From a virus (taxonomy: Duplodnaviria > Heunggongvirae > Uroviricota > Caudoviricetes): a stretch of DNA of 12,059 bases. Location of the stretch: IMG/VR virus record IMGVR_UViG_2713896791_000029. One strand, 5' to 3'. Below, piece after piece: positions 1,462 through 5,417 of this stretch. Every line of letters begins with the position of its first letter. Position 1 is the first letter of the stretch. Made by a program: the position numbers and the translations under genes. The notes under the pieces are model-generated. The model ran no database searches. It was not told the origin of the DNA and saw nothing but the letters and a program-made list of their open reading frames with translations.

Positions 1462-1951
1462 ATATGTCCTTTTATCACCACAGCAAGGCAACCCATTGAT
1501 TTAATTAAACAACACACACTGCAAAAAGTGCTAAAAACAGCAAATTGACTACACCATTAACTACACCGTTCGGTGCACTGTATGAAACAACGTGGAACAA
1601 ATAGACACAAGAAATATACAGGCGGGTAATCTTTCCAGGGGGAAGCGCACCAATTCATGAGGGGCGTTAATGTCGATATGGGGATCCCCATAACGGGGCT
1701 ACAGGATTTTTTTTCCGGTTAACTGTTAATCAGGCTGGTGGGTTTTACCTGTTCGGTAGGTGTTATGATTATCGTAATACCTTTCCCCCAGTGGGGTAAA
1801 AGCTCCAACCGTAACGATGTTCGTTGTGGTTGCCTTGATGGTCTGCGTGGTCATTATGACCATTCAGAATATGAAGGGTGACGCTTCCGACTTCCTCAAA
1901 TTGAGGTTTCCGAAAATATCAGCGGGTTAGCGATTAATCTGACCATTAATT

Positions 1952-1974
1952 AAACTACGAAAATTTCGTAGTTT
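1952..1974. repeat. 23-bp palindrome: perfect 11-bp arms AAACTACGAAA / TTTCGTAGTTT around a single central base
   Basis: Read directly from the sequence. Lies in the non-coding stretch between phoQ and the first island gene; candidate protein-binding site. Confidence 0.4.
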
Positions 1975-2062
1975 GTGAATATATTCCGGCCTTCTGGTTA
2001 ACAGTCCTCAGATGTGAGGGATGTAGCCAGCGCAATTTTGCGTTATCGGGAATATCAGCAAG

Positions 2063-2344
2063 TTACCGCCGCAGCCGTTCCGGCTTCTTCCAGTGGTACG
2101 TTATTTTTTCTTTCTCCCGATACAGTTCAACGCGGCGATTGTAGGCCAGCATTTCAAGAACGCGGTTCCGTATGTTGCGCATATCAACGCCATTAAGTTC
2201 TATACCATCACGGCGCATCACTTCCGCTACAACACGCACATAATTTTCAGCGGTCACGCTGTCCGGCTGTGTGGCCTGTTCGTCATGCTGCTGGCTGATT
2301 CCGGCGACGCGGCGGATTAATCCCAGTAGTTCGGCTTCTGTCAT
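2063..2344 (-). CDS. Hypothetical protein (93 aa), last gene before the island's left junction
   Basis: ORF with GGGGG Shine-Dalgarno about 5 nt upstream of the ATG. No motif I recognise. Confidence 0.45.
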   Translation of the reverse strand: MTEAELLGLIRRVAGISQQHDEQATQPDSVTAENYVRVVAEVMRRDGIELNGVDMRNIRNRVLEMLAYNRRVELYREKEKITYHWKKPERLRR

Positions 2345-2401
2345 TGTGCCCCCATCGCTCTGATAGTCTGGTGTCGTCGGGTCCTTCCTGGAATTATGGC
2401 C

Positions 2402-2580
2402 CGTTACGGGGCGGCGACCTCGCGGTTTTTATCTGTTTATGAGAATTTTCCGGCAAAAGTCAGATCCGCTCTTCTTCTCTGTAACAGACTGTTTAACAAT
2501 GAAAATATTAAAAAAAGAAAGGATCTGACACGAGGCATTTTAGCCAGAAAATGCCATTATCAGATCCTTTCTCATTTTTG
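2402..2580 (+). other. Lambda-type cos site: cosN (GTTACG/GGGCGGCGACCT/CGCGG, overhang at 2408-2419) plus cosB-like R3/I1/R2/R1 region
   Basis: Close to collinear with the remembered left end of lambda (GGGCGGCGACCTCGCGG...TTTATGA.AATTTTCCGG...TCTTCTTC...AAAGAAAGGA...CCTTTCTC..TTTTTGT). R-element cores read CAGATCC at 2460-2466 and 2560-2566, and inverted as GGATCTG at 2520-2526, where lambda has CGTTTCC. An AT-rich I1-like segment lies between R3 and R2. Confidence 0.8.
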
Positions 2581-2599
2581 TTCAATAATTGCGCGTCTG

Positions 2600-3142
2600 T
2601 TACTCGCCTTTCTTCTGTAGCAACTTTTCCGGTACGTTTCCGGTTGTTTCTTTCAAGTAATCAGCCAGTATCTGTGGGAGGTTGTCGGCAACTCTGGCAC
2701 TGGCATTACAGACTTTAACCACTTCCCTTTTAAGCCTGTCCAGCATGGCGGGGGTAATCTGTGGGAAGCTCCTTTGCATAGTAAGCGGGAGGATGTCCAT
2801 GATTGATGAAATCTGACTCGCCAGCTTTGAAAGCGCGTACAGGCAAAACTCAGTATCAATCACGTCACCGCGATCGCGATCGTTTTTAAGTTCCTGCGCC
2901 TCTGCCTGTGCTGTCAGTAATCTGATCCTGACTCGTAAAAGTTCATCATCGTCAATCTCGCCTTTGTCGTTTATAAGCTGGCTAATTGCATTGTTAACCC
3001 TATTTTCTATCACGCTGGCAACATCATAAAACGCCTCACGGCCTTTACGCTCAACGGGAGTTACTCCCCACTTGTCGAACGCTGTCGCACTTACACGGCA
3101 GCTTTTCGCCATGTTTTTTTTGTTCATCAGATGAGATTTCAT
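2600..3142 (-). CDS. Small terminase subunit, lambda Nu1-like (180 aa)
   Basis: The C-terminal two-thirds align with lambda Nu1 (LTAQAEAQELKNDRD...DTEFCLYALSKLASQISSIMDILPLTMQRSFP versus Nu1 LTRAQADAQELKNARD...ETAFCTFVLSRIAGEIASILDGLPLSVQRRFP). The N-terminal wHTH region has the same spacing with conserved NKK...A...S...W and EAFYDVASVI (Nu1: EVLYDSAAVI) but different intervening residues. Start codon choice is uncertain; the ATG at 3142 has only a weak Shine-Dalgarno. Confidence 0.85.
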   Translation of the reverse strand: MKSHLMNKKNMAKSCRVSATAFDKWGVTPVERKGREAFYDVASVIENRVNNAISQLINDKGEIDDDELLRVRIRLLTAQAEAQELKNDRDRGDVIDTEFCLYALSKLASQISSIMDILPLTMQRSFPQITPAMLDRLKREVVKVCNASARVADNLPQILADYLKETTGNVPEKLLQKKGE

Positions 3143-3143
3143 T

Positions 3144-3181
3144 AATACACCAACTTAATTACTGCTTCAGGTTGGTGTATT
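3144..3181. repeat. Inverted repeat: 11-bp arms AATACACCAAC / GTTGGTGTATT with a 16-nt spacer, ending 1 nt from the terS ATG
   Basis: Read directly from the sequence; perfect arm complementarity. Confidence 0.5.
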
Positions 3182-3317
3182 GCTTGCATCTTTCCCTTTT
3201 CATTCATAAAGATAGATCAAACAACAAAACCACCACCACCCCCCTGAAAAGGCTCATAAATAGCGAAAATCCGCGAGGTCTCCGCCCCGTAACAGGTCCA
3301 TATGCCGGAAAGGACCC

Positions 3318-3342
3318 GCAAAAAAGCCGGATTTCTCCGGCC
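3318..3342 (-). terminator. Intrinsic terminator (copy a): GCCGGA-loop-TCCGGC followed by U6 on the - strand
   Basis: A6 + GCCGGA tttc TCCGGC on the + strand, so hairpin then U-run on the - strand. Sits 5 nt after the stop of the 137-aa gene. Confidence 0.5.
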
Positions 3343-3347
3343 TTGTC

Positions 3348-3761
3348 TCAGATGGTTTTCAGTATGCGATCGATGTCGCCGTCATCGCCCGGGTTTCTGC
3401 CATCGTATGCCATGCCAGCTGATACGGCTTGTGGGCTGTGCATGTCCATAAAGTTTTCAAAGGCTGCGGTAAGCTCTGGTGCAACCTTCGGGCGTTCCTG
3501 CTCTATGGTCATGTTCAGGATGTTTTTAGCCGTATCAACATCAATACAAGGCACGTTTGCCATTGCACGTAACAGCGGCTGATAGTCGTCAGATTCATGA
3601 AGCGCCATAATCGCATCAGCGCGCGGCTTGTCCTTCTCTTCCAGGCTGTTAAGTTGATATACGGCCTCGTAGGTTGATAAACCTCTGTCAGCCATTGCCC
3701 GCGCTTCGGCTTTAAATTTACTCGCCAGCGGTAGCGTCATGATACTTTCATTCGTTGCCAT
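3348..3761 (-). CDS. Hypothetical acidic protein (137 aa) between the decoration gene and terS
   Basis: AGGGGG Shine-Dalgarno 4 nt upstream of the ATG, 12 nt after the stop of the gpD-like gene. Acidic and predicted helical. No motif I recognise; a scaffold or packaging accessory role is only a guess. Confidence 0.6.
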   Translation of the reverse strand: MATNESIMTLPLASKFKAEARAMADRGLSTYEAVYQLNSLEEKDKPRADAIMALHESDDYQPLLRAMANVPCIDVDTAKNILNMTIEQERPKVAPELTAAFENFMDMHSPQAVSAGMAYDGRNPGDDGDIDRILKTI

Positions 3762-3773
3762 CGTTCCCCCTGC

Positions 3774-4109
3774 TTATCGCGCCAGCGGCTGAACGGATAC
3801 GCCAGAACCCGCAAAGGCGGCGCATTTTTTCGCGTCGGTGTCGGCGCTCTCAGGCCAGTTAACGGCGGCAATATTGAATATCCCCGTCTTGTAGCACTGT
3901 GCTGATTTCTGCGTCGACGTGTCCACGGGGTACGAGGTCAGATAAACAGCCTTGCCAGATTCCTGACCATCCCACGGCTTAAACTCGCCATTTTCCGCCA
4001 GCATCAGCGGGGTAAATTCCTGAATAACGCCAGCATCAGCAGCAAAATGTACCAGCGTCGTGGATACCTGCTGACTACCTGCAAATAACTCAATGTATGG
4101 AGTGTCCAT
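3774..4109 (-). CDS. Head decoration protein, lambda gpD-like (111 aa)
   Basis: Aligns with remembered lambda gpD: FTPLMLAENGEFKPWDG...DTSTQKSAQCYKTGIF...WPESADTDAKKCAAFAGSGVSV versus TPLMLDTSSRKLVAWDG...DQTSTTLTFYKSGTF...[29 protein letters not shown] Shine-Dalgarno immediately after the stop of the capsid gene. Confidence 0.8.
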   Translation of the reverse strand: MDTPYIELFAGSQQVSTTLVHFAADAGVIQEFTPLMLAENGEFKPWDGQESGKAVYLTSYPVDTSTQKSAQCYKTGIFNIAAVNWPESADTDAKKCAAFAGSGVSVQPLAR

Positions 4110-4121
4110 AGAATCCCCCCG

Positions 4122-5177
4122 TTAACCAATTTTGACGGTAACAAATTTGCGAATATCTGCCGGTACCGGCTGCGGTGCGCTGTGCGTCTGCACGTACTCA
4201 ATCGCCGGATCGCCGTCCTCAATCCAGTTTTTCGGGTAAAACATGTTTTGCGTTGCGCCCGTTCTGACCGCTTCCTGATCCATAATCGCACCATAGGCCA
4301 CCAGCCCTTTATTGTTGGTGTTACCCAGGACCAGCAAATCAGGCTCAAGGAAATATTTTTCGGTGCCGTCGCTGTCAGTGTATTTGCCGGAATAGACGAC
4401 AAGGGCAATATCGCCCAGATAGCCTTTAAAGCTCACCACTTCACCCAGGTTTTTACAGGCCAGTTCTGCGGCGGATTCTGAACCACGGGAAAGGTCGTAC
4501 AGTTCGCGGAATTTTTTAAAGCTGCGTAACGTGCGCCATACTTCAGCGCCCATAATCATGACGTTTGCGGGGCAATTGCCCTGATCAGCATAAAGCTCGA
4601 TGTCATAGATTGGATCGTGTGTTTCTTTATCCAGCTCAGACCATTTTTTACCGTCAGCCTGTTCTATGATATTGCTTTCCGGGATCTTCCAGTCGATTTC
4701 ATAGCGTTCTATGCCTTCGCCCTCAATGAGGTTTTTTCCGGTCGTTACCGCATTCACCGCCAGCCATTCCACGCGTGCCTTAATGGCGTTTATCTGGCGG
4801 CGCATGTTGCCAGTAATCAGGCGCATACGGCGATAGGTAGGATCGTTAAGCTGTGCCGGATCTTCTCCAGCCATGCGCATGATGGTTTTTGTTGGATCGA
4901 TTTCGTGTTTGGGTTTCATGTAGCCTGGTTTAATCGTGCTGGTTTCGTACCCTTTATCGCGCTGGACCTGACTACCCACCATAGGCGAACAGAACGCTGA
5001 CATCGTAACCTCTTCAATGTCCAGGGTGTCCAGCATGATGTTCTGGGTGTTGAAGGTCGCCACGTTCGGGAAAAACAGCGTGGTAAACAGCGGACTGAAT
5101 TTAAATTCTGCAATATCCCCGCGATTCAGGTACGCGAAAAGCTGGTTAGTGTTAAGTGCCGTTGCTTTGCCTGCCAT
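4122..5177 (-). CDS. Major capsid protein, lambda gpE-like (351 aa)
   Basis: Multiple blocks shared with remembered lambda gpE: EFKFSPLF..LFF, PGYMKPKHEI, DPTYRRMRLI, DKETHDPIYDIELYA, FKGYLGDIALVVYSGKY, VLGNTNNKGL.AYGAI.D, YPKNWIEDGDPA.E....SAP. GGAGGTG Shine-Dalgarno; the stop of the upstream gene overlaps the start (TAATG). Confidence 0.9.
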   Translation of the reverse strand: MAGKATALNTNQLFAYLNRGDIAEFKFSPLFTTLFFPNVATFNTQNIMLDTLDIEEVTMSAFCSPMVGSQVQRDKGYETSTIKPGYMKPKHEIDPTKTIMRMAGEDPAQLNDPTYRRMRLITGNMRRQINAIKARVEWLAVNAVTTGKNLIEGEGIERYEIDWKIPESNIIEQADGKKWSELDKETHDPIYDIELYADQGNCPANVMIMGAEVWRTLRSFKKFRELYDLSRGSESAAELACKNLGEVVSFKGYLGDIALVVYSGKYTDSDGTEKYFLEPDLLVLGNTNNKGLVAYGAIMDQEAVRTGATQNMFYPKNWIEDGDPAIEYVQTHSAPQPVPADIRKFVTVKIG

Positions 5178-5383
5178 TATTCACCTCCATGCGTCTGATT
5201 CATGCCCAGCGCCGCGCGTAAATAGGCGCGGACCTGCCAGCCTGTTGACGGCTCAACCATCGCCAGCGGATCAAGTCCTGCCGCAATGCCTGCTTTTACG
5301 TTCTGCCGGTGGCGTTCCTTGAGCGCCTTCACGATGTCGGGGCTTATGTACACCGAAACACCGCCTTTTTTCTCTTCAGCCAT
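5177..5383 (-). CDS. Hypothetical small protein (68 aa), first gene of the head operon; possible ribbon-helix-helix-like fold
   Basis: Translationally coupled to the capsid gene. The N-terminus GGVSVYISPDIVKALKERH resembles a beta-strand plus helix RHH motif, but this is weak. Confidence 0.5.
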   Translation of the reverse strand: MAEEKKGGVSVYISPDIVKALKERHRQNVKAGIAAGLDPLAMVEPSTGWQVRAYLRAALGMNQTHGGE

Positions 5384-5417
5384 AGTAAGAAATTCCTCTT
5401 CGACTTAAAAAATCATA

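Follow-up and report, generated by a model that had tools for sequence, protein, structure and literature searches.

A phage-inducible chromosomal island of Escherichia coli encodes a full-length small terminase between two inverted cos sites with different cosB classes

The stretch analysed here, called the window, comprises 12,059 nucleotides of the IMG/VR virus record IMGVR_UViG_2713896791_000029, and the subject of this study is a gene for a small terminase subunit (terS, protein TerS) together with the two cohesive-end (cos) sites that flank it. Positions 1-1461 of the window are PhoQ coding sequence, and a mobile island extends from about position 1548 onward, past the integrase gene. 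Window 1462-5400 has 100% identity to Escherichia coli O103:H2 strain 12009, and 489 of 5,426 complete E. coli genomes cover at least 80% of this segment. Strain 12009 carries the identical locus, and its RefSeq annotation places the island between phoQ and roxA. The island genes encode an integrase, a small helix-turn-helix regulator, a RepA-type helicase, ssb, a PerC-family regulator (perC), a gpE-like capsid protein, a gpD-like decoration protein, a 137-aa hypothetical protein, a “terminase small subunit” and a 93-aa hypothetical protein. Neither this annotation nor the Pfam matches revealed genes for a large terminase (TerL), portal, tail or lysis in the island. One copy of the att core marks the island end in the window, and the second lies beyond the integrase, outside the window. 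The island has the gene content and size of a phage-inducible chromosomal island (PICI), namely an integrase, an AlpA-type regulator, a replication module, a size of about 10 kb and its own att, and it is without lysis, tail and TerL genes. By gene content and insertion site, the island of about 10.8 kb is a PICI and an allelic variant of EcCICFT073, the model PICI that E. coli CFT073 carries at the same phoQ-adjacent site, and the window covers one end of it. A capsid-forming PICI was ruled out, as genes for TerL, portal, protease and HNH are absent from the island. Islands of this kind are common in Shiga-toxin-producing O103, O26 and O45 strains.

The first of the two sites, cos1 (2379-2580, plus strand), aligns to the joined ends of phage lambda from cosQ through R1. 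It holds all parts of a lambda-type cos: cosQ, cosN with a 12-nt end, I2, and three spaced R repeats. A previous reading of this DNA, made from the letters alone (the sequence-only reading), had described a cos nearly collinear with lambda’s left end, in which all three R elements read CAGATCC instead of CGTTTCC. The alignment and the core positions agree with it, except that the 12-nt segment given as 2408-2419 lies one base to the right, at 2409-2420. CAGATCC has exactly three copies in the window, all within 107 bp, while 0.94 copies per window are expected from shuffling. Counted from the first base of the 12-nt end, the R cores start at bp 53, 113 and 153, compared with 53, 114 and 155 in lambda, and in both cases they are oriented forward, reverse, forward. 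The R elements have retained the 3′ extension CCkyTCTT, and the difference from lambda is confined to the 5′ half of the core. As had also been noticed, cos1 lies downstream of terS and in opposite orientation: the two converge, with the terS stop codon 20 nt past R1.

This order of cos and terS had appeared unusual in the sequence-only reading, which overlooked a second cos-like site. This site, cos2 (3144-3317, minus strand), immediately precedes terS, as in the canonical arrangement of lambda. The cosQ-cosN-I2 arms of cos1 and cos2 form a 76-nt inverted repeat with 79% identity (2378-2453 versus 3243-3318). An inversion between these arms, which might have restored a lambda-like order of cosB and terS, was rejected, because it leaves R3 beside the distal cosN; the convergent arrangement is thus intrinsic to the cassette. 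The repeats of cos2 resemble R3 of phage N15. Two of them, R2′ and R1′, are perfect inverted copies of each other over 11 nt (I15). In N15, R3 has been placed at bp 48-60 by linker scanning (PMC9026076); the sequence there is GAGGTTGTTGTTT, with the R3 repeat GGTTGTTGT. N15-like E. coli phages, in which a 174-aa TerS is followed by TerL, have the repeats GGTGGTTGTTGTTT, AATACAACAACC and GGTTGTTGTAT between cosN and terS. The island cos2 is homologous to this region, and they share the layout of R3 forward, R2 reverse and R1 forward upstream of terS. The features of the window are listed in Table 1.

Table 1. Features of the packaging region and of the remaining island in the window.
Feature	Position	Strand	Remarks
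cos1 common arm (cosQ-like, nicking region, I2-like)	2378-2453	+	one arm of the 76-nt inverted repeat I1
cos1 cosQ-like GGGTCCTTCC	2379-2388	+	lambda alignment
cos1 nicking region ACG/GGGCGGCGACCT, 12-nt lambda cohesive-end sequence	2409-2420	+	identical to lambda
cos1 I2-like TTTATGAGAATTTTCC	2436-2451	+	lambda alignment
cos1 cosB	2460-2580	+	R3 2461-2467 (+), R2 2521-2527 (-), R1 2561-2567 (+), each CAGATCC
terS, 180-aa full-length small terminase	2600-3142	-	Pfam PF07471; N15 gp1-type domain (predicted winged helix), conserved Nu1 middle, satellite-specific C-terminal module
cos2 cosB	3144-3240	-	R3′ region, R2′, R1′; repeats resemble N15 R3
R1′ GTTGGTGTATT	3144-3154	-	one base before terS ATG
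R2′ AATACACCAACC	3170-3181	inverted	cos2
R3′ region GGTGGTGGTGGTTTTGTTGTTTG	3218-3240	-	cos2
cos2 common arm	3243-3318	-	I2′ 3246-3262, 12-nt GGGCGGAGACCT 3276-3287, cosQ′ 3307-3317; lambda alignment
GC hairpin and T-run GGCCGGAGAAATCCGGCTTTTTT	3320-3342	-	between 137-aa gene and cosQ′; read from sequence; conserved in relatives
att core, 21-bp direct repeat ACTACACCATTAACTACACCG, island end	1548-1568		exact repeat in the full locus (L001) at 9087 and 19935
93-aa hypothetical protein, conserved, island end	2063-2344	-	homologue of the last gene of EcCICFT073; no Pfam match
137-aa hypothetical protein	3348-3761	-	upstream of cos2
gpD-like decoration protein	3774-4109	-	Pfam HDPD 1e-17
gpE-like major capsid protein	4122-5177	-	Pfam Phage_cap_E 2.2e-50
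Integrase gene	10830-12059	-	island runs beyond integrase

The protein between the two sites matches the Pfam family PF07471 with 79.2 bits (cut-off 30) and an E-value of 3.6e-22, over profile positions 35-162 of 164. A BLASTP alignment with lambda Nu1, over residues 6-166, has 36% identity (E 2e-32). Among phage proteins, N15 gp1 is the closest homologue, with 43.6% identity concentrated in the DNA-binding domain (island, MNKKNMAKSCRVSATAFDKWGVTPVERKGREAFYDV; N15, LNKSDMASSLGISVQAFDKWGVQPVEKRGREVFFDV). This domain is 56-58% identical to those of N15 gp1 and the TerS of N15-like phages, versus 30-38% for the lambda, 21-type and Gifsy-type domains. The sequence-only reading had noted that residues of the N-terminal domain differ from those of lambda and suggested a comparison with lambda, 21, phi80 and N15. 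The domain is indeed distinct and belongs to the N15 type, and N15-like repeats stand in cos2. Shared with N15 gp1 are the pattern ...AFDKWGVxPVExxGREvFyDV, a short wing and the lack of a lambda-like 50-60 segment. A winged helix with the order helix-helix-strand-strand-helix is predicted, though with a mean AlphaFold pLDDT of only 58 (21 close homologues). A sequence search of the PDB with TerS returned nothing meaningful, neither the gpNu1 domain nor the Rpp complexes.

The middle region of TerS is its best conserved part in comparison with all helper TerS classes (41-45% identity). The C-terminus, which the sequence-only reading called Nu1-like, does align to the end of Nu1, but it is a satellite-specific module with a tail of 12-15 aa. 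With the C-terminal region of a 194-aa island TerS that has a 21-type domain, this module shares 60% identity and the tail TTGNVPEKL.Q.KGE. From these alignments, satellites therefore seem to join DNA-binding domains of different types to a single C-terminal module of their own. For terS as a whole dN/dS is 0.14-0.22, and for the DNA-binding domain it is 0.04-0.11; by this measure the gene is under purifying selection, which is strongest in that domain. A TerL gene is found neither in the island nor downstream of terS in any locus with a window-type TerS, and TerL would thus have to come from a helper. Across helper classes, a comparison of TerL N-termini was dominated by the choice of start codon, and the Gifsy-type loci were heterogeneous. 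A scan for consensus promoters and terminators gave nothing reliable for the expression of terS.

The comparison with EcCICFT073 places terS in a known context. Window 5600-3246 is collinear with that island at 94% identity, and window 2453-2051 is collinear with positions 3265-3667 of the CFT073 locus (L005) at 89.6%. The difference is confined to window 2454-3245, where CFT073 has rppA. Both islands have the same gene order, with gpE-like and gpD-like genes upstream of two inverted cosQ-cosN-I2 copies that enclose one specificity gene, and both have a distal cos with three R-like repeats. The cos2 arm is collinear with the rppA-proximal cos of EcCICFT073, and terS takes a position equivalent to that of rppA, downstream of and co-oriented with the proximal cos. 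The cassette gene itself, however, encodes a 180-aa Nu1-family TerS in the one island and the 144-aa RppA in the other, without detectable similarity. The proximal cosB is N15-like here (GGTGGTGG...GTTGTT, with AATACACCAAC/GTTGGTGTATT) and reads CACCACCACCAC in EcCICFT073, while the distal cosB has CAGATCC here and ATGTCCGG there.

The sequence-only reading had left undecided whether the protein is a true TerS or a factor like Rpp. Rpp proteins have 135-153 aa and lack a TerS-like C-terminal (TerL-binding) region (PMC9026076), whereas TerS has 180 aa and aligns to the last residues of Nu1, with the tail in addition. Its BLASTP comparison with RppA (L005:2660-3094) gave E = 3.2 and their identity in a multiple alignment is 16%, in a comparison made with RppA and not directly with RppB or RppC. 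An assignment to Rpp was thus rejected on sequence, length and the C-terminal region; by these features, the product of terS is a full-length TerS homologue and not an Rpp. Rpp needs the helper TerS to reach TerL (PMC9026076). A full-length TerS may not need it.

The cores of cos1 turned out to be widespread in phages. A scan of 2.9 million viral contigs with the query CAGATCCGYTCTTCTTCT yielded 74 loci. In about 55 of them, cosN-R3-R2-R1 is followed at +126 to +145 by a co-oriented TerS of 182-185 aa with the recognition helix D(V/A)RTIT(A/G/T)WQSQG, and then, on contigs of sufficient length, by a TerL of about 650 aa. Three CAGATCC cores are likewise present in Salmonella phage Gifsy-1, whose TerS begins with MNVNKKKLAEIFGCDVRTVTAWQ. 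The prophage remnant SerU-LTIIb, with the same type of helix, has CAGATCC at R3 and R2 and GAGATCC at R1. Among 5,426 complete E. coli genomes, 226 contain the E. coli form of this cos-terS-terL block. The site cos1 has 78% identity, with few gaps, to the cos of E. coli Gifsy-type prophages, and 69% to that of lambda. With the Gifsy-1 and E. coli lambdoid prophage sites it shares identical R cores as well as their order and spacing, and with the E. coli prophages also the lambda 12-nt cohesive end. In comparison with lambda, cos1 has nearly identical cosQ, cosN and I2 segments and a collinear tripartite cosB, with changes at three of the seven positions of the R cores. In the island, terS runs opposite to cos1, and the TerS, despite 36% identity over its full length, has no lambda-type DNA-binding domain. 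Judged by these loci, CAGATCC is a natural phage cosB class with a TerS helix of its own, comparable to CGTTTCC with the helix SIRTIQNWQEQG in lambda and C(A/G)TGTCGG with DPRTIERWQSQG in the 21-type helper of CFT073 (phage 4). In the viral contigs L013-L086, the CAGATCC cosB occurs together with at least six different cohesive ends, among them GGGCGGCGACCT, GGGTCTGGGGAC, GGGTACGGGTAC, GGGTAGCCATAC and GGGCGGCAGACG. Therefore, cosN and cosB assort independently among those phages and islands.

These results bear on the model of the sequence-only reading, in which the island TerS evolved a specificity for the CAGATCC repeats of cos1, recruits a lambdoid TerL and cuts at 2409-2420. The repeats do adjoin the gene, 20 nt past its stop codon and with the spacing and order of lambda, the TerS domain is unlike that of lambda, and no TerS in a phage record exceeds 44% identity to it. 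Yet in Gifsy-1, in about 55 viral contigs and in 226 E. coli genomes the same cores stand canonically upstream of another TerS class. In Gifsy-type phages, cosB precedes a co-oriented TerS (helix DVRT(I/V)TAWQSQG) and TerL, whereas in the island the cosB of cos1 abuts the 3′ end of a convergent terS of unrelated specificity. About 20 of the 74 loci are of this island type, with a convergent gene after R1 that encodes either the window-type 180-aa TerS or a TerS of 194-200 aa with a 21-type helix (DPRTIERWQ). In islands with the 21-type helix, the upstream cos has 21-type repeats (CATGTCGG) and the distal cos still has CAGATCC. The window-type TerS, on the other hand, is not tied to CAGATCC. 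Of 38 loci with this TerS, sampled by protein similarity irrespective of the distal cos, 10 had CAGATCC at the distal site and one more had a disrupted copy of it; 3 had a 21-type site, 7 retained only cosN, 11 had no distal site and 6 had one of another kind. The protein thus occurs with five different distal arrangements, and no co-variation was found across relatives between the CAGATCC core and the DNA-binding domain of the island TerS. Furthermore, TerS relatives with 53-59% identity in Enterobacter and Kosakonia belong to satellites without a downstream cos; those of Enterobacter sit inside a prophage capsid gene, as described in PMC10111431. Together with the repeats resembling N15 R3 in cos2, this makes it very improbable that CAGATCC is the cognate site of the island TerS, and we already disfavour this pairing. 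The sequence-only reading also named the opposite outcome, a module simply derived from a helper. This applies to the R cores, which known phages share, but the N-terminus of the TerS of these phages differs.

The evidence for a partner of TerS points instead to cos2. We assign cos2 and terS to each other because of the domain type, the N15-like repeats, their co-variation, and the motif that follows the TerS across genera. Three repeats resembling the N15 sequence (GGTTGTTGT) are arranged forward, reverse, forward between cosN and terS, and the island differs from N15 in lacking a TerL after terS. The helix GISVQAFDKW occurs with ATACAACAACC in all 30 phage-type loci, and the helix RVSATAFDKW with ATACACCAACC in 38 of 47 satellite loci. 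This also distinguishes the island itself from N15, with R2/R1 of GGTTGGTGT instead of GGTTGTTGT. The Enterobacter and Kosakonia relatives have an upstream cos only, with the same GGTGGTGGTGTTGTTGTT motif, and an upstream cos with GGTGGTGG...GTTGTT is the one feature that follows the window-type TerS into other genera.

The explanation that we favour, with moderate confidence, is that TerS and cos2 form the island’s own recognition pair and that cos1 is a site for Gifsy-type helpers. The packaging cassette, bounded by the two inverted cosQ-cosN-I2 copies, would then hold two independent recognition modules. In the first, TerS would bind R3′, R2′ and R1′ of cos2, its C-terminal module would bring a helper TerL to the cos2 nicking site, and the island would be packaged into heads made by the helper. 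In the second, cos1 would be recognised not by the island TerS but by the TerS of a Gifsy-type lambdoid helper (helix DVRTITAWQSQG). This would give the island a second route into virions, independent of its own TerS, and a wider range of helpers, in a manner reminiscent of P4 and SaPIbov5. If both sites are cut, cos1 and cos2 would yield non-identical cohesive ends. The anatomy with two convergent cos sites, the cosB classes, the domain type of TerS, the homologies, the co-variation of domain and repeats and the lack of a TerL gene are shown by the sequences. The general idea of the sequence-only reading, a satellite TerS of its own specificity that uses a helper TerL, probably holds for a satellite without TerL, whereas the pairing with CAGATCC is not supported.

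Several observations weigh against this explanation. We infer every functional step (DNA binding, recruitment of TerL, cleavage and the choice of helper) from sequence. The co-variation of helix and repeats separates only two clades, satellites and phages, and may reflect shared ancestry instead of independent changes that recurred. A (GGT)n/G-run insertion shifts the R3′ core to about bp 57-69, some 9 bp farther from the nicking site than in N15 and N15-like phages, and spacing is critical in lambda (PMC9026076). The 12-nt sequence of cos2, GGGCGGAGACCT, has one C-to-A change from lambda (GGCGGAG), while most relatives have the lambda sequence GGGCGGCGACCT. Residues 126-168 of TerS, in the region proposed to recruit TerL, are only 28% identical to the TerS of lambda, N15 or 21, and 42% to that of N15-like E. 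coli phages. The distal cos is dispensable, as it is absent or reduced to cosN in 18 of the 38 sampled islands, and lambda and phi80 transferred EcCICFT073 slightly better once its second cos (cos2) had been deleted (PMC6092414).

The last two points are also what would be expected if cos1 were a non-functional relic, a recombination scar from an exchange with a Gifsy-type prophage at the shared cosN/I2 and without a role in transfer. In line with this, EcCICFT073’s own cos1, and not its cos2, was needed for transfer mediated by lambda and phi80 and responded to RppA (PMC6739421). However, the distal site is complete where it is present, with cosQ, cosN, I2 and three repeats with intact cores and spacing, and the exact cores are kept across diverged copies. 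Alternative intact classes occupy the same position, namely CAGATCC, the 21-type, and the three ATGTCCGG copies of EcCICFT073, a pattern which resembles an exchange of modules and not decay. Moreover, each of the two EcCICFT073 sites, when cloned, enabled plasmid transfer, and their double deletion abolished the transfer of the island (PMC6092414). A relic is for these reasons unlikely.

The position of terS raises a different alternative. As the gene stands exactly where rppA is found in an otherwise collinear island, TerS could mainly be an interference factor like Rpp, which acts by binding the helper TerS (PMC6739421). Mixed oligomers with the helper TerS would poison packaging, recognition of cos would be secondary, and cos1 would be a decoy that titrates terminase. 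The middle region, best conserved in comparison with all helper classes, would fit such a role. On the other hand, TerS has no sequence similarity to RppA and retains the full C-terminal region that aligns to the end of Nu1. Selective constraint is strongest in its DNA-binding domain, and this domain goes together with conserved upstream repeats; both points speak for a central role of DNA recognition. We therefore give interference as the main function a low probability, about as low as that of a relic cos1; it is nevertheless compatible with TerS and cos2 as a recognition pair, and the two do not exclude each other.

A broader reading takes in the whole EcCICFT073 family. A second type of island TerS, with 194-200 aa (L019, L020, L021, L029, L034, L051 and L070), is chimeric: it has a 21-type domain (DPRTIERWQ) and cognate 21-type upstream repeats, with the same C-terminal module and tail as the window TerS. 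As far as the sequences go, this suggests a swapping of domains on a constant C-terminal module. In the family as a whole, the inverted cosN/I2 arms might bound a swappable cassette for packaging specificity, in which whole modules are exchanged: Rpp, an N15-type TerS, or a 21-type TerS domain on the satellite-specific C-terminal module. Each module would come with its cognate proximal cosB, and the helper-type cosB at the distal position would belong to another class. With two convergent cos sites, packaging could proceed in either direction by two terminase specificities, one route with the island’s own TerS and a stolen TerL, and the other with the helper’s own TerS. The C-terminal module would be a general adaptor for helper TerL, or else a poison for helper TerS oligomers. 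Taken jointly, this chain of proposals is tentative, and we regard it as rather doubtful in its entirety.

Other satellites offer partial parallels. In pac-type Staphylococcus aureus pathogenicity islands (SaPIs) such as SaPI1 and SaPIbov1, a satellite TerS with its own site uses the helper TerL. This is a functional analogy only; the SaPI protein families and the headful pac packaging are unrelated to those of the island. P4 and SaPIbov5 are packaged via a copied helper cos (summarised in bioRxiv 10.1101/2022.09.08.507074). By analogy, the island appears to combine the own-TerS route with the helper-cos route. No Ppi-like partner was identified in the island.

Earlier work has described parts of this picture: the island family with two cos sites and Rpp (PMC6092414, PMC6739421, PMC9026076), relatives embedded in prophages (PMC10111431), and TerS as a core PICI component in SatelliteFinder (PMC10085698). 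Three elements were not found in the searched literature, namely a full-length N15-type TerS with a cognate cos that replaces Rpp in the EcCICFT073 island family, a classification of the distal cos by defined phage cosB types, and the pairing of CAGATCC with a DVRTITxWQ helix. The packaging of E. coli PICIs is currently explained by one mechanism, the re-targeting of the helper TerS by Rpp. In close relatives at the same chromosomal site, Rpp is replaced by a complete small terminase and a matching N15-like cos. The two EcCICFT073 papers of 2018 and 2019 could identify no phage cosB in that island, and the role of its second cos and the nature of its cosB have so far been left open. In this island family the “second” cos has a bona fide phage-type cosB that can be classified, Gifsy-1-type here and 21-like in others. 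Such classes give testable predictions of which prophages mobilise these islands. Furthermore, CAGATCC with DVRTITxWQ is a third pair of R core and recognition helix, beside those of lambda and 21, for the study of terminase specificity.

In EcCICFT073, the cos distal to rppA (L005:3100-3320) has three copies of ATGTCCGG/CCGGACAT beside cosN, at L005 positions 3163, 3193 and 3252. They resemble the 21-type C(A/G)TGTCGG of phage 4, CFT073’s own helper. In cos2, the G-run/(GGT)n tract (3228-3245, minus strand) varies among near-identical islands, with GGGGGGTGGTGGTGG, GGGTGGTGGTGGTGG and GGGGGGGGGGGTGGG at the same position in L094-L133. The altered 12-nt sequence GGGCGGAGACCT is also present in the closest copies of the window (L094 and L095). 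The hairpin with a T-run upstream of cosQ′ looks, from its sequence, like a terminator; it was not listed by the scan for consensus terminators.

The block of “late” genes upstream of cos2 (3348-5177, minus strand) is collinear with EcCICFT073 at 93.8%. The island has retained the gpD-like and gpE-like head genes (3774-5177), yet it has no portal, protease or TerL gene. Deletion of the EcCICFT073 homologues c1499 and c1500 was reported not to relieve interference with lambda reproduction (PMC6092414). The 137-aa protein has no Pfam match. Its positional counterpart in the Enterobacter relatives (127 aa) matches Phage_AlpA, and this profile match suggests that a second AlpA-like regulator heads the packaging region. 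Two runs of N, at 7356-7419 (64 positions) and 8429-8478 (50 positions), interrupt the RepA-helicase gene and the neighbouring region. They are masked stretches of the supplied sequence, because the annotation of strain 12009 shows the identical locus intact.

A first scan of contigs for TerS relatives by exact peptides gave no matches. An alignment-based scan gave six loci, four of which are marine phages without a recognisable lambda-type cos. The Enterobacter islands (L006-L010, metagenome and assembly contigs), with a TerS 57-59% identical to that of the window, are integrated in the major capsid gene of a lambdoid prophage. They contain defence-like cargo in the interval from terS to the interrupted capsid gene, either a HEPN and a GmrSD-type protein or a 402-aa protein, and a gene with a TIR domain lies near alpA.

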